64,000 nt of DNA from an uncultured Pseudomonadota bacterium. Lineage in GTDB: Bacteria > Pseudomonadota > Alphaproteobacteria > Rs-D84. Numbering within the stretch: position 1 is the stretch's first letter; each line of letters starts with the position of its first letter. Below the pieces are notes generated by a model, which ran no database searches, was not told the DNA's origin, and worked only from the letters and a program-made list of their open reading frames with translations. The position numbers and the translations under genes were made by a program. Positions 30,304-54,626 of this stretch are shown here, one piece after another. Location: assembly GCA_902784345.1 (NCBI GenBank), contig CACZUD010000001.1, positions 30,810 to 94,809 on the forward strand, given 5' to 3'.

Positions 30304-33075
30304 ATGATAACATTAATTGACGGCAATTCACTGGTATTTCGTGCTTACTATGGTGTACATAGTAATTTGACTCGCAGCGACGGAATGCCAGTTGGTGCCG
30401 TTTATGGTTTCTTTAATATGGTCTTGCCCATATTTGCAAAGGCAAAAGAAACTGATTCTTTCGTATGTGTATTTGATGCATCACGAATTTCTTTTAGGCA
30501 AGACATTTACCCACAATACAAAGCAAATCGCAGCGAAACACCCGCCGATTTAATCACACAAAGCGAATTAATTCGAATCGGGCTGCACGCGATGGGGGTT
30601 TCCGTACTCTGTATTCCGGGGGTGGAAGCAGATGATGTTATTGCAACAATCGCAACACAAAATTGTGATAAAGACGACAAGACCAGAATTATCACCAGCG
30701 ACAAGGATTTAATGCAACTGGTGTCACCTTGCGTATTTCTTTACGATGGTATGAAAGAAAAAGAAATACACGAAACTGAAGTCATGGAAAAATTCGCGGT
30801 GAAACCAAATCAGGTTATCGATGTTCAATCGCTTATGGGCGATTCGTCTGATAATGTCCCCGGCGTCCCTGGAATTGGTCCAAAGAAAGCTGCCGAATTG
30901 ATAAACGAATTTGGAAGTTTGGATAATTTATACGCAAATCTTGATTCAGTAAAAAACGAACGAATTCGCGGATTATTGCATGACAACAAAGAAATGGCTT
31001 ATATTTCCAAGAAACTGGTTACATTAAAACGCGATGTTGATTTAGATGGATTAAAAATCACTCCATTTTGTTTTGATAAATCTGGTGCGCTGGATTTTGT
31101 TCGTGAAAAAGTTGAAAGCAAAACTTTGACTGCAAAAATAGAAAAATTATTTCCTGGCGACAAACAAACATGCACCCCACAAATAACAGAATACGAAAAA
31201 TCAATTTGCCCTGTGGTTGATATTCCAGAAACACCAAAAACACAATCTGTACTGGGCGAAATGGACATTATAACAATTTCGAACGAATCGGAATTGAATG
31301 AATTTTTATCACATATAACAAACGTTATCGCATTTGATACCGAAACCACAGGTCTGAATCAAATCAGTGATAAACTTGTCGGACTTTCTTTAGCATACGA
31401 CGATAAACATGGCGCATATATTCCGATTCGGCACATAACAAAATCTGCAGATTTATTTGGTGGCGAAACAATTGTTCCGAATCAATTATCCATAGATGTT
31501 GTTTATAAAAAACTTTGGCCAATTTTCACAAATCCAAACATAACTAAAATTGCACATAACCTGAAATATGATTTGCATATTCTGTCTAACGAAGGTTGGG
31601 ACATAACAAAAATCAATCCGATTGATGACACAATGTTACTGTCGTATGCATTGTATGGTTCTCTGCATGGACATGGTCTGGACGAATTGGCTGAAAAATA
31701 CCTTGGACACAGCGATATTAAATTCAGCGATTTATTTGATGCGAAAACCAAAGATGCAGACAGACATTTTGAAACTCTACAAATTGATATCGCAACAAAA
31801 TATTCTGGCGAAGATTCTGTCGTTTGTATGGCTTTGTACAACCTGTTTCGTCCACAACTTGACGCAAACAAGGCTTTATGCGAATTATATGAAACTTGCG
31901 ACATACCACTTTGCCCTATTTTGTGCTTGATGGAAAAATATGGGGTTGCTGTTAATCGCGAAAGATTAAATCAATTATCCGCTGTATTTCATAAACAATT
32001 GGAAAAACTTGAATCCGAAATTTATGAATTGGCAGGACACGAATTTAACGTGGCCAGCCCAAAACAACTGGCTGTCGTATTGTTTGATGAATTGCGTTTA
32101 CCAGACAAAAAGAAACATTCGACGGATGCGGCGACATTAAACGATTTGGTTGAATCACATCCGATTGTTGAAAAGATTTTGACTTGGCGTTCTGTGGCGA
32201 AATTGGCAGGAACTTATGCAGATGCCCTGCCTCATGAAATCGCAAGCGACGGACGAATTCATACAACATTTTTGCAAACCAGTACAAACACGGGTCGTCT
32301 TTCCAGCCGCAATCCAAATCTGCAAAACATACCTATCAAAACAGAACTAGGCGAAGAAATCAGAAAGTGTTTCGTCGCAGAACCTGGGAAACTTTTGATT
32401 GCGGTGGATTATTCGCAAATTCAATTAAGATTGCTGGCAGACGTTGCAAATGTCGAAATGTTCAAAGAAACATTTAACAAAGGCTTGGACATTCACGAAC
32501 AAACCGCACGCAAAATCTTCAATATTCCGCAAACTTCGCCTGTTCCAAAAGAATTGCGTCGTGCAGCAAAAACAATTAACTTTTCAATTATTTACGGGAT
32601 ATCTGCATTTGGTCTGGCTAATCAGTTAAATATTTCACGTGAAGAAGCAAAAAAGATTATTGATTCTTATATGGCGGGATTACCTGAAATCAAAGAATAC
32701 ATTGATTATGTATCTGATTTTGTTTTGAAAAACCATTGTGTTTATACGCCTTGGCATCGCCGCATAGAAATACCAGAAGCCGCGAACCCACGTATGCGCG
32801 GTTATGCTGTTCGTGCGGCAATCAATGCACCAATCCAAGGATTCGAAGCAGACATAGTCCGTCGTGCGATGGTAAACGTTTACAACAACATCGTTGTTCC
32901 GAATTCTGATAAAATAAAAATGATTTTACAGGTTCATGACGAAATCATATTTGAATGTGATGAAAAGGTTGCCGAACTTTTCGCACAACAAATAAAAAAA
33001 GAAATGGAAAACGTAACCAAGTTATCAGTGCCACTGTTGGCAGAATCAATCATATCACCAATTTGGGACAAATAA
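30304..33075 (+). CDS. polA: DNA polymerase I
   Basis: 923 aa comprising a 5'-nuclease domain (LIDGNSLVFRAYY), a 3'-5' exonuclease domain (AFDTETTGL) and polymerase motifs (DYSQIQLRLLA, QVHDEIIFE). Confidence 0.97.
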   Translation: MITLIDGNSLVFRAYYGVHSNLTRSDGMPVGAVYGFFNMVLPIFAKAKETDSFVCVFDASRISFRQDIYPQYKANRSETPADLITQSELIRIGLHAMGVSVLCIPGVEADDVIATIATQNCDKDDKTRIITSDKDLMQLVSPCVFLYDGMKEKEIHETEVMEKFAVKPNQVIDVQSLMGDSSDNVPGVPGIGPKKAAELINEFGSLDNLYANLDSVKNERIRGLLHDNKEMAYISKKLVTLKRDVDLDGLKITPFCFDKSGALDFVREKVESKTLTAKIEKLFPGDKQTCTPQITEYEKSICPVVDIPETPKTQSVLGEMDIITISNESELNEFLSHITNVIAFDTETTGLNQISDKLVGLSLAYDDKHGAYIPIRHITKSADLFGGETIVPNQLSIDVVYKKLWPIFTNPNITKIAHNLKYDLHILSNEGWDITKINPIDDTMLLSYALYGSLHGHGLDELAEKYLGHSDIKFSDLFDAKTKDADRHFETLQIDIATKYSGEDSVVCMALYNLFRPQLDANKALCELYETCDIPLCPILCLMEKYGVAVNRERLNQLSAVFHKQLEKLESEIYELAGHEFNVASPKQLAVVLFDELRLPDKKKHSTDAATLNDLVESHPIVEKILTWRSVAKLAGTYADALPHEIASDGRIHTTFLQTSTNTGRLSSRNPNLQNIPIKTELGEEIRKCFVAEPGKLLIAVDYSQIQLRLLADVANVEMFKETFNKGLDIHEQTARKIFNIPQTSPVPKELRRAAKTINFSIIYGISAFGLANQLNISREEAKKIIDSYMAGLPEIKEYIDYVSDFVLKNHCVYTPWHRRIEIPEAANPRMRGYAVRAAINAPIQGFEADIVRRAMVNVYNNIVVPNSDKIKMILQVHDEIIFECDEKVAELFAQQIKKEMENVTKLSVPLLAESIISPIWDK

Positions 33076-51722: not shown

Positions 51723-51748
51723 AAAACGCCTTTTGGCGTTTTTTTTAT
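51721..51748. terminator. Bidirectional intrinsic terminator
   Basis: AAAAAACGCC-TTTT-GGCGTTTTTTTT. Confidence 0.7.
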
Positions 51749-52569
51749 CTTGTGAAAGATTTTAACTTTAAATCTTTAATTAATTTTTGTGCTTCATCAA
51801 AATGACGACCTATGTTTTTTGCAACATGAGCATCATCACTTATTAAAACAGGCACATTATTTTCATGTACCATTTTCAAAATCCTGTTTGACGGATATGG
51901 CTCGTAACAATCAGGTCTGTAAAACGAAGTATTTATTTCAATCGCTGTTTTTGATTTAGCGCCGGCTTCAACTGCCCTGCTTTCGAAATCTGCCCATTTT
52001 TCGCCACGGCCAAGACCAACTTTTTTCGGCAAATCAAGATGCGCCATCCAAGTAAACATACCAGATTCCGCAGCATTTTTCAGATTCGTCCAATATTTTT
52101 CCAACAACAAATTCTGCATCTGTTCATCAGAATTTTTTAAATCATGCACATTAAGCAATGTTCCATCATATTCTACAAAATGCGCCGAACCAATTAAATA
52201 ATCAGGTTTTAATATTTTAATTGCTTTTTCAAAACCATTTCGCCATTTTGCATTATTGAAAAAATCGACCTCCATACCACGCAAGATTTTCATATCTGGA
52301 TTTTGTTCTTGGATAATCTGCAATTCTTCATAATGGGGAACAAATCGCGATAAAACCTCATCAAACGACGCAGAATATATACTCCTGTATCCGCCAATCC
52401 CCGCATAAAAATACATTTTAGCTTGTTTAATAACTGGATTAACAATAAAATGATTAGAAATACCGATAGTATCAAAACCCAATTCACGCGCACGGTTAAC
52501 CATGTCTTGAACACTATCTTGACCGTCAAAACCTATTGTGTGTGTATGAAGAGTATATTTTTGAATCAT
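51745..52569 (-). CDS. PHP-family histidinol-phosphatase-like protein (HisJ family)
   Basis: LHTHTIGFDGQDSVQDMVNRARELGFDTIGISNHF is a PHP domain N-motif. Further His/Asp motifs include GSAHFV, AHLD and SDDAH. Confidence 0.8.
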   Translation of the reverse strand: MIQKYTLHTHTIGFDGQDSVQDMVNRARELGFDTIGISNHFIVNPVIKQAKMYFYAGIGGYRSIYSASFDEVLSRFVPHYEELQIIQEQNPDMKILRGMEVDFFNNAKWRNGFEKAIKILKPDYLIGSAHFVEYDGTLLNVHDLKNSDEQMQNLLLEKYWTNLKNAAESGMFTWMAHLDLPKKVGLGRGEKWADFESRAVEAGAKSKTAIEINTSFYRPDCYEPYPSNRILKMVHENNVPVLISDDAHVAKNIGRHFDEAQKLIKDLKLKSFTR

Positions 52570-52654
52570 GATTTTATGTTATACACCTAAAAAACGGAAT
52601 TCAATAAAATATATTTGCATTTTTAAAAAATCGGTATATAATAAATCTCGTTTT

Positions 52655-52731
52655 CGGGGTGTAGCTCAGTCTGGTAGAGTACTTGGTTTGGGACCAAGGT
52701 GTCGAAGGTTCGAATCCTTTCGCCCCGACCA
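52655..52731 (+). tRNA. tRNA-Pro (anticodon TGG)
   Basis: A hand-folded 77-nt cloverleaf: acceptor CGGGGTG/CGCCCCG, anticodon arm CTTGG-TTTGGGA-CCAAG, T arm GAAGG-TTCGAAT-CCTTT, with encoded CCA. Confidence 0.92.
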
Positions 52732-52740
52732 GATTTAATA

Positions 52741-52768
52741 AAAAAGACCATCACAAGATGGCCTTTTT
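52741..52768 (+). terminator. Intrinsic terminator of tRNA-Pro
   Basis: AGACCATC-ACAA-GATGGCCT followed by TTTTT. Confidence 0.65.
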
Positions 52769-52782
52769 TATTAAACTGTTTA

Positions 52783-53013
52783 CGTCGTGGCGAAAGGATT
52801 CAAAGAACATTCGGGAAGAAGGTTCGACCCGCAGGCGAAAGGCAGACGAGAGTATGCCGGTGAGCAGAGCGAATGAGCCAAGGGAGCGCAGTCCAAATTT
52901 ATTTGGACGAAGCAATCCTTTCGCCCAGCATACCTCTAATAGAGTTTTTGTTTATGGTTGGTTTATTGTTTGTCGAGGAGGAATCGCCCCGACCAGATTA
53001 AATAAAAAAGACC
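52783..53013 (+). repeat. Cluster of displaced tRNA-Pro 3'-half fragments around a GC-rich insert
   Basis: 52783..52800 is an inverted copy (17/18) of GAATCCTTTCGCCCCGAC. 52817..52826 GAAGGTTCGA equals the T-stem 5' strand plus T loop. An 87-nt insert follows. 52913..52926 AATCCTTTTCGCCC equals the T-stem 3' strand plus acceptor, with one extra T. 52986..53013 is a 27/28 direct repeat of 52722..52749 (the tRNA 3' end plus 18 nt of flank). Confidence 0.85.
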
Positions 53014-53033
53014 GTTTCATACGGTCTTTTTTT
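53004..53033. terminator. Bidirectional intrinsic terminator
   Basis: AAAGACCGT-TTCAT-ACGGTCTTT flanked by A and T runs. Confidence 0.65.
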
Positions 53034-53037
53034 ACTA

Positions 53038-53463
53038 CTATTTCTTTTTGGCTAAAATCTCGCTGTTAACTTGAGCGGTTAATTGCGCTTGCTTTTTTTG
53101 CAATTTCTTCATAAGACACTGTTCTTCATACATTTTTTTTGCTAATTGACAAAGCACGCGCATTTCGCGAAAGCCTTCATCCCCCTTGCGTACAATGTCA
53201 GACGAAACTCTTTCACGCAATATAGCCGCTTCTAAATTCGACCATTGATAAAAATCGTTAGATAACGAATTTCCTTTTGGCAATATGCATACAGAAAACA
53301 TTCTGCCGCCATTTTCATAAAAATGATAAAGAACATTTACTTCGCCCATATCAGTACGAACAGTTTTTGTACGAAACTCACGCCTAACACTGACACCGGG
53401 TCTTGAAACAGAGTCTATCAGGTATTCTATATCTCTCTTTGTAGTTCCAACATACCCACCCAT
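53038..53463 (-). CDS. Hypothetical protein
   Basis: 141-aa ORF with no recognisable family. It is the first gene after the tRNA-Pro fragment cluster. Confidence 0.5.
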   Translation of the reverse strand: MGGYVGTTKRDIEYLIDSVSRPGVSVRREFRTKTVRTDMGEVNVLYHFYENGGRMFSVCILPKGNSLSNDFYQWSNLEAAILRERVSSDIVRKGDEGFREMRVLCQLAKKMYEEQCLMKKLQKKQAQLTAQVNSEILAKKK

Positions 53464-53603
53464 AAAGTATCCTTTTTTTTATTAAAGCCACTATTAAATA
53501 ACACAAAATATAAATTCTGTCAATTATTTTTATTCAAAAAATACAAAGTTTTTATAAAAAACTGTTATTTTTGACACTTTTTCATGATAAAATACTAAAT
53601 ATC

Positions 53604-54626
53604 ATGAAAAAGCTTTTTTATTTTATTTTTATTGTTGGTATGGCAATTCCCGCGTACGCAAAATTATCGGCAACCTTGTTTCCGACGACCGCACAGGATT
53701 TATCTTTTAAATCGCGTGTGGAAATTGCAACCGAAGGATACAAACCATTTCTAGACAAAAAAGCCTATGAAGAATTAAACGTTGTCCCAGGCGAAGAATT
53801 TTACACAGACCGAATAATCGCAGAAATGGAAGCAGAAAATAACCAGCAAGAAACAGATGCACGAACAATGTCTCTGAACGAATATTGTGCAAAATATCCT
53901 TATGATTATACAAAATGCCCGCGCCCAACAGAACCATCAGAAACAGTGCAACAAACACCACAAAGCCAGCAACTGACACAACAACAAACATATTTTTCTG
54001 GCAGAACGATTGGCGGGGGGCCTGTTGTTGAAAACAATTATGTAACTGGTGGTTCTTGTTATCCTGCAGCAAGAGACAGGAATTTTGAAGATAAAATTTG
54101 GACTACTGGTAAATATGAAAAAATGCATCCGGCATTTGAAAAAGGTTTAATCACTGTATTCAGGAAAGAAGGAAAATGTGGCAAAATCAGGGGTGATCAT
54201 TGCGGATACACTTGCTATGGGATAAGTGAGTGTGCCGGCGTACGCGTCAGTTCGCGTGCCGAAGCAGAAGAAGTTTATTACAAACAATATTGGAAACCAA
54301 AAAAATTTGAAAGATTACCAGACGTTATCGCCAGCGATGTGTTCGTGGCTGCTGTATGGAGTGGTAATGGTACAGCCATGCAACATCTCAGAGATTTTTT
54401 AGGTTTACCAATAAAAAGTACCCCTGTGGACAATGAAGTGGTAAAAGCTATCAATAATTACCAGGGCGATATATACAATGATTGGATAAATTATCGTGAA
54501 GCGTTTTTAATGGATGTCGCACGCCGACGCTATAACGGCAGTGTAAGCAACGGCTTCAGAAATGCGATTGAATTAAAACGCAAAAATGGATGCCATGTTC
54601 GTCCAACAGAACCACTTTATCGTTAA
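53604..54626 (+). CDS. Exported GH108-like peptidoglycan hydrolase (lysozyme-like)
   Basis: I set the start at MKKLFYFIFIVGMAIPAYA (signal peptide). The C-terminal half reads VFRKEGKCG...GYTCYGIS...AEEVYYKQYWKPKKFERLPDVIASDVFVAAVWSGNGTAMQHLRDFLGL. By eye it follows the GH108 pattern EGG...GGxTxYGI...YxxxYWxxxxxxxLPxxxAxxxFDxAVNxGxxxAxxxLQ. Confidence 0.6.
   Translation: MKKLFYFIFIVGMAIPAYAKLSATLFPTTAQDLSFKSRVEIATEGYKPFLDKKAYEELNVVPGEEFYTDRIIAEMEAENNQQETDARTMSLNEYCAKYPYDYTKCPRPTEPSETVQQTPQSQQLTQQQTYFSGRTIGGGPVVENNYVTGGSCYPAARDRNFEDKIWTTGKYEKMHPAFEKGLITVFRKEGKCGKIRGDHCGYTCYGISECAGVRVSSRAEAEEVYYKQYWKPKKFERLPDVIASDVFVAAVWSGNGTAMQHLRDFLGLPIKSTPVDNEVVKAINNYQGDIYNDWINYREAFLMDVARRRYNGSVSNGFRNAIELKRKNGCHVRPTEPLYR

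Follow-up and report, generated by a model that had tools for sequence, protein, structure and literature searches.

Probable tRNA-linked repeats, fused and truncated, behind a tRNA-Pro gene of an uncultured alphaproteobacterium

Why does the DNA behind an intact tRNA gene carry pieces of that gene's own 3' part, in both orientations and around a GC-rich insert? The tRNA-Pro(TGG) gene that raises this question lies in a window of 64,000 nucleotides (positions 30,810 to 94,809 of contig CACZUD010000001.1) from an assembly of an uncultured alphaproteobacterium (GCA_902784345.1; 785 kb, 10 contigs, 84% complete, 45 tRNA genes, all with CCA encoded). The initial annotation, made from the letters of the window, described six pieces after tRNA-Pro; all are present, with coordinates off by at most 1-2 nt. 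We found that 52782-53037 is probably made up of two fused, partly eroded tRNA-linked repeats (TLRs), of the class represented by the tyrT/RtT units of E. coli, a described class that had gone unrecognised in the initial annotation. The features of the locus are:

52655..52731, plus strand: tRNA-Pro(TGG), CCA encoded, the intact source gene of the downstream 3'-part copies (ARAGORN; Rfam tRNA, 65 bits)
52734..52775, plus strand: terminator T1, a long A-tract / stem / U-tract hairpin (inverted repeat with 19-nt arms, 52734-52752 and 52757-52775, 95%; terminator scan; fold -17.4 kcal/mol)
52784..52804, plus strand: antisense copy (IR-L) of tRNA-Pro positions ~54-74, that is, T loop, T-stem 3' strand, and acceptor 3' strand
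52805..52827, plus strand: linker, sense T-stem 5' strand, and first five T-loop bases (GAAGGTTCGA at 52818-52827)
52828..52913, plus strand: module E, an 86-nt GC-rich insert between A58 and N59 (T loop) of a spare T-arm
52914..52926, plus strand: sense copy of tRNA-Pro A58-C70 (AATCCTTTCGCCC, 13 nt), the truncated 3' end of unit 1
52927..52983, plus strand: 3' arm (tail) only of a second module, C' family, joined to unit 1 by deletion
52984..53003, plus strand: last 12 nt of tRNA-Pro (TCGCCCCGACCA, 52984-52995) and duplicated 3' flank, the 3' end of unit 2
53004..53032, plus strand: terminator T2, a diverged copy of T1 in which stem changes are compensated (12-nt perfect arms; terminator scan)

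The first unit starts 51 nt past tRNA-Pro and lies on the same strand as the tRNA. Its antisense copy, first given as 52783-52800, is best placed at 52784-52804, where its 21 nt are 90% complementary to 52709-52729; 52789-52800 is also perfectly complementary over 12 bp to 52914-52925 in the downstream sense copy. The antisense copy therefore pairs with either the tRNA 3' part or the downstream sense copy. The sense piece GAAGGTTCGA, which had been placed one base too low, matches 52704-52713 at 10/10 positions. The insert had been located correctly in the T loop; it lies between A58 and N59 and measures 86 nt rather than 87; one T too many had been assigned to the 13-nt piece that follows it. 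GC content is 57% in the insert versus 38% across the window. The first ~60 nt of this copy belong to the widespread E family, and its last ~27 nt form a hairpin unlike that of most E copies. The direct repeat (52722-52749 and 52986-53013) is exactly as first reported, with 27/28 identities. It extends to 29/30 (52720-52749, second copy from 52984) and, across both terminators, to 54 nt at 80%.

Matches to tRNA tails are expected by chance only 0.01-0.04 times per window (0.04 for the 12-nt tail pattern). When compared with the genome's own tRNAs, the direct and inverted copies each rank 1/45 for tRNA-Pro, and so are specific to their cognate tRNA. The tRNA-Pro sequence itself is identical in three relatives (G001, G002, and G009). 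Near-identical architecture in independent assemblies (G001/RUG14070, G002, and G124) argues against an assembly artefact. A coding reading was rejected: the ORFs span the tRNA and the terminators, and the lengths of the indels among module E copies are not divisible by three. The structure in the window is real and non-random, and is probably a new member of the TLR class, from an alphaproteobacterial lineage and in a fused, truncated state.

The history of the fusion can be read from the same locus in relatives, anchored on a PHP-domain gene (51745-52569). In G009, the site is empty and holds a terminator alone. The closest relative, UBA2947, has one complete C' unit (L062), the last 57 nt of which are identical to window positions 52939-52995. 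In G002, the E unit is intact, with its own terminator and all 19 nt of the tail to CCA; an intact C unit comes next, and after it the flank of the empty site. In G001/RUG14070, the E unit is cut after the same 13 nt and fused to a C tail, as in the window. Other relatives carry C + C + A (L064), B (L065), or B + A (G012). These comparisons indicate that units were inserted between the tRNA body and the ancestral 3' flank, and that turnover is quick, with different modules at one tRNA. They also show that 52927-52983 is not spacer but what is left of a second unit; the region matches the C-type module behind tRNA-Glu at 84% over 43 nt (BLAST, E 5.5e-5). The ~59 nt that had been treated as mere distance between two pieces thus form the tail of another, different module, of which the closest relative carries an intact copy. 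Units are gained and lost between species. Directly 3' of T2 is a 141-aa ORF (53038-53463, minus strand) without a Pfam match, and ~0.5 kb downstream is a gene with a GH108 muramidase domain (53571-54626); this block is absent from the orthologous place in G009 and G001.

The locus has many counterparts in the same genome. A downstream copy of the tRNA's own last 19 nt was found for 18/45 tRNAs at rank 1/45 with a score of at least 26, and for a 19th, tRNA-Arg(ACG), with a score of 22; 12 tRNAs have a cognate antisense copy. The tRNA-Pro and tRNA-Arg loci that had been compared at the outset do have one common architecture, each matching its own tRNA. The inserted modules fall into several families: A/B has 16 copies (nhmmer); C, a long AT-rich hairpin whose head is GC-rich, occurs at roughly 15 places by BLAST; D has 2 copies; and E also has 2 (nhmmer), at the tRNA-Pro locus and in a second unit behind a tRNA-Met. 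Modules of all these families are common to different tRNAs, with similarity bounded by near-universal T-loop bases, and copies behind different tRNAs of the one genome are up to 95% identical. A few orphan copies lie away from tRNAs, and no stable RNA gene was found beside them. One is a C module at G000 C5:2019-2111 (minus strand; L016) that sits between 36-nt direct repeats not derived from a tRNA, with no stable RNA gene nearby in the Rfam search.

Several other arrangements in this genome are worth recording. The longest array (L021, G000 C7:2140-2530) consists of three tandem B + C units behind a tRNA-Met. An upstream variant of the theme (L020, G000 C4:5961-6190, minus strand) begins with an exact 5' part of tRNA-Arg(CCG) up to TTCGA, followed by a B module, a C tail, a promoter-like stretch, and the intact tRNA-Arg(CCG). 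Behind tRNA-Ala(TGC) (G000 C8:18358-18560) is a plain tandem duplication of the T-arm, 3' end, flank, and terminator, without antisense copy or module, which may be a module-less spare T-arm. The genome also encodes a permuted, two-piece tmRNA gene (G000 C6:2440-2771; tag AANDNVRFAMAA; ARAGORN), which fits an alphaproteobacterial origin.

Module E is widespread within the genus. BLAST with 52818-52926 as query found it in 67/151 genus genomes and 1/3 sister-genus genomes, and in 0/29 genomes searched from other families of the order. At 30 loci it lies behind tRNAs for Pro (TGG, CGG, GGG), Ser (TGA, GGA, CGA), Arg (ACG), and His and behind two Met tRNAs; at least nine different tRNAs carry it. 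Its flanks at these 30 loci are always cognate, with T-stem and TTCGA on the left and A58-CCA on the right, and in the alignment of the copies (A1) similarity begins and stops at the near-universal T-loop bases.

The consensus fold of module E has four helices within the module. Among 20 sequences, 97.5% of cells are paired, versus 91.7% in shuffles and 19-37% in slid controls, and 0/500 shuffles score as high. Five pairs have changes on both sides, and the G-U pairs at two positions fit the tRNA-sense strand only. Because the double changes come largely from two or three lineages, the covariation reflects few independent events. As judged from these alignments, the evidence for a fold constraint on the sense strand of module E is moderate, not strong. 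The suggestion that the region encodes a structured RNA was borne out to the extent that it holds a folded module with covariation. The thermodynamic check proposed alongside it gave a divided answer: the window unit folds better than its shuffles (z = -3.3), whereas the intact G002 unit does not (z = -0.25), so that thermodynamics alone is uninformative. Rfam has no family for module E, bar a sub-threshold match to RtT.

RtT belongs to the system that these units most resemble. TLRs directly follow a tRNA or rRNA gene, with which they share operon and orientation, and the last 18-19 bp of a unit repeat the 3' end of that gene exactly; they form multi-copy families at several tRNA loci with one to several units each, and are co-transcribed with the upstream RNA and then released by processing (PMC8144298). 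E. coli K-12 has 22 TLR units at ten loci; they were first seen in 1978, and nearly fifty years have brought no accepted account of where they come from or what they do (PMC8144298). The distal repeats of tyrT/tyrV are 178-bp units, and their rtT RNA (rttR) is Rfam RF00391 (Egan and Landy 1978 and Rudd 1999, cited in PMC8144298). Similarly, the unit in the window is a same-strand unit directly 3' of tRNA-Pro, and it belongs to a multi-copy family of ~19 loci, some with 2-3 tandem units. Its tail is identical to the tRNA 3' end, split into 13 nt (52914-52926) and 12 nt (52984-52995) in the window and forming an unbroken 19-nt stretch in G002.

We read the tyrV locus of E. coli K-12 in the same way. 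It comprises tRNA-Tyr, an antisense T-arm copy with the loop altered to ATGAGAA, a sense T-stem with TTCGA, a 66-nt insert, and a tail from A58 to CCA. The insert is at the same T-loop A58 junction as in the window, and the parts have the same order. Like the units here, E. coli TLRs lie directly behind a tRNA in the same orientation, end in its last 18-19 nt, and occupy many loci. The units described here differ in that each brings its own intrinsic terminator, in that they comprise at least four or five module families and affect ~40% of tRNA genes, and in their host, an uncultured alphaproteobacterium rather than an enterobacterium. The loop change recurs as a side observation: the antisense T-loop complement A-Y-TCGAA often reads A-Y-GAGAA, namely behind Arg(TCT), Lys(CTT), and Lys(TTT) in G000 and behind Arg-ACG in G007/G058, and the same two-base change is present in all three E. 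coli tyrV units (L061). It is either convergent or functionally meaningful.

The Rfam RtT model (RF00391) aligns over its full length (1-130) to 52778-52931 with 18.2 bits (E 0.19), below the gathering threshold of 45 bits, and the order of parts in the RtT consensus is that of the window unit. A whole-genome RtT search gave a best score of 11.7 bits, also below threshold, and RtT has no match at the tRNA-Arg unit. Other permissive Rfam matches at the Pro and Arg loci (microRNA-type and MicC) were discarded, as they reflect hairpins and terminators. Searches of the E. coli tyrV locus with the A/B and E profiles (nhmmer) found no module homology. Because the RtT score is sub-threshold (18.2 versus 45 bits), kinship with the E. 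coli TLRs rests on architecture. As far as these comparisons reach, the relation is one of build rather than demonstrable common descent.

Tyrosine-integrase prophages and islands leave attL/attR duplications of tRNA 3' ends, and tRNA genes reportedly have sublocation preferences, a subject attributed to Williams in 2002. The initial annotation proposed serial integration and excision of such elements in the T loop, which would make the repeats attL/attR remnants. As in these scars, the 3' part of an intact tRNA is directly repeated around inserted DNA, the crossover often falls in the T loop, and the DNA downstream of tRNA-Pro differs among relatives; a GH108 muramidase-like gene also lies within reach, 0.5 kb further downstream. 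However, the bounded DNA is a non-coding unit of 130-250 bp without cargo genes, an att site has no place for an antisense copy, and no further tRNA-Pro tail copy downstream within the window bounds an island. The units also affect ~19/45 tRNAs, and one folded module family recurs behind at least nine different tRNAs of the genus with cognate arms, which is beyond a single attP.

The genome, at 84% completeness, has two tyrosine recombinases (PF00589 matches), with XerD (291.7 bits) and XerC (295.7 bits) as best NCBIfam models, and no phage- or island-type integrase near TLRs. The proposed look for tyrosine integrases with these tRNA 3' ends in attP consequently ended at XerC-/XerD-like proteins, neither of them near a TLR. 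A reverse transcriptase was likewise not detected (no RVT_1 domain). A gene for an integrase or a reverse transcriptase could still reside in the portion that this 84%-complete assembly lacks. Given recombinases of the XerC/XerD type only, the lack of a closing tRNA-Pro tail in the window, and the properties of the units, integrase scars are very unlikely and the idea is largely refuted.

A second proposal, a small non-autonomous element at T-loop DNA, comes close to the data, but its targeting by a protein is less favoured. Here, a transposase or nuclease that recognises T-loop DNA would insert the module, as in MITEs. The junction is precise and constant in all copies, after TTCGA and before A-N-N, which such an enzyme would explain, as it would the near-identical copies behind different tRNAs of one genome, the orphan copies, and a full-length tRNA-Ser(GGA) gene that is interrupted at exactly that position in two genomes. 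Yet the terminal inverted repeats of MITEs are constant and their target duplication is of fixed length, whereas the inverted ends here vary with each tRNA and the duplicated target is a tRNA tail of variable length. In addition, no candidate transposase was found, the E. coli units have the same junction with unrelated modules, and the interrupted tRNA-Ser is rare and has a simpler explanation. We consider insertion by a dedicated protein unlikely.

That explanation comes from a sister genome. In G157 (C2:5954-6100; L034/L056) and G018 (C19:about 200-349; L037/L057), tRNA-Ser(GGA) has a full-length body up to TTCGA, then module E (66-77 nt) between A58 and N59, and then the tRNA tail; an intact tRNA-Ser(GGA) was not found in either genome. 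In G140, an intact tRNA-Ser(GGA) is followed by T1, an antisense copy, and an E unit whose module and downstream DNA are the same as in G157 and G018. The two states differ by a deletion between the two sense copies of T-stem plus TTCGA, which are 10-12-nt direct repeats; the comparison makes recombination between these copies, within the T loop, directly visible. A T-loop "intron" was thus rejected in favour of a rare by-product (2/257 genus genomes) for which a simple deletion suffices.

The arrangement of the parts points to a different origin. The tRNA end and its antisense copy are symmetric about a centre that, in 32/33 rows, falls no more than 3 nt from the T1 loop (median difference 0); as the 33 rows include two duplicates, 30/31 distinct loci are mirror-symmetric across T1. 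At the tRNA-Pro locus, the two centres are at 25.5 and 23.5, and the tRNA 3' end and the antisense copy are arranged symmetrically around the T1 loop. When folded, the stretch from T-arm to antisense copy forms a single long hairpin (-50 to -70 kcal/mol), the tip of which is T1. A complete unit comprises, in order, a terminator, the antisense T-arm and 3' strand, a short loop, the sense T-stem 5' strand with TTCGA, the module, A58-CCA, and the next terminator. From the mirror symmetry across T1 and from T2 as a diverged duplicate of T1, it follows that the basic unit triplicates the tRNA 3' part in direct-inverted-direct order. The first of the two junctions coincides with the terminator hairpin, the second with the self-complementary T-arm.

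Template switching at quasi-palindromes and inverted triplications are described by replication-based rearrangement models. Inverted triplications resemble the units in their direct-inverted-direct copies, in the hairpin at each junction (here T1 and the T-arm), and in the duplicated terminator, although the known ones are mutational events rather than a recurrent genomic family. The likeness in mechanism is taken here from geometry alone. In such a scheme, replication would switch template at the terminator hairpin and return at the self-complementary T-arm, which would yield the triplication and also duplicate the terminator. We favour this origin tentatively, as it is reconstructed from the geometry of finished units rather than from observed intermediates, and it is plausible without reaching an even chance.

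A DNA-level origin also agrees with how the copies have decayed. Mismatches between tRNA end and antisense copy are A-C in 18 cases and G-U in 16 (ungapped comparison, small sample), and because A-C is as frequent as G-U, there is no sign of RNA-level selection on this pairing. A DNA-level origin followed by neutral decay fits the mismatch pattern better than selection for an RNA helix. This bears on the idea that the units are selected regulatory RNAs that mimic the top half of the cognate tRNA (acceptor and T-arm), for example as decoys or sensors for processing or binding factors, with selection keeping the cognate specificity. The antisense copy is equivalent to the 5' strands of acceptor and T-stem together, which lets the ends of a unit form a 12-bp minihelix with NCCA, in keeping with the favourable fold of the window unit; module E, for its part, is conserved and has compensatory changes as well as G-U pairs on the sense strand. 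But the intact G002 unit folds no better than shuffles, the antisense acceptor part decays quickly with mismatches that have no G-U bias, and units are freely gained, lost, truncated, and fused among close relatives, the window's own copy being truncated. Selection for a tRNA mimic is, in our view, quite improbable.

Whether selected or not, the units could be transcribed. The small RNAs RrA, RrB, and RrF are TLRs behind 5S rRNA, located between T1 and T2 of E. coli rrn operons, and they bind Hfq and CsrA via GGA motifs (PMC8144298). Like the unit in the window, they lie between two terminators and repeat the last 18 nt of the upstream RNA at their 3' end, although their upstream gene is 5S rRNA; they set a precedent in which transcription passes through T1 and the RNA is then processed at the repeated end. 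By analogy, rare read-through of T1 would produce an RNA of ~140-250 nt with a tRNA-like acceptor / T-stem / CCA end, which tRNA-processing enzymes could trim. At -12 to -20 kcal/mol, the T1 hairpins equal or exceed those of T2 in strength, so read-through is not favoured by design, and a leaky first terminator was rejected on the same grounds. In public RNA runs (6-8% of sampled words), contigs cover only the tRNA (about 52606-52733) and then continue into the flanks of relatives. Expression of the units by read-through, as for RrA/B/F, is possible but doubtful.

Modules may move between spare T-arms by recombination or template switching within the bases GGTTCGA and A-N-TCC, with no dedicated enzyme involved. 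This mode of spread, deduced from the distribution of modules rather than from an observed intermediate, is one that we rate at only slightly less than an even chance. Taken together, TLRs would be self-generating by template switching, and folded modules (E, A/B, and C) would spread via the universal T-loop sequence, occasionally into live tRNA genes, without any element-encoded protein; the combined account is more tentative than its parts and, on balance, somewhat unlikely.

Such units should be annotated neither as integration scars nor as pseudo-tRNAs. The genus takes the study of TLRs beyond E. coli, with hundreds of related small genomes in which units have been gained, lost, fused, and swapped at orthologous tRNA loci, with empty sites for comparison, and with several module families. 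The mirror symmetry across the first terminator is a clean geometric regularity that points to a concrete mechanism of origin, and tRNA-Ser(GGA) in two genomes indicates that the process can hit a live tRNA gene. If the combined account is true, these units would represent a protein-less class of tRNA-tied mobile DNA across bacteria and would explain a puzzle that dates from 1978.
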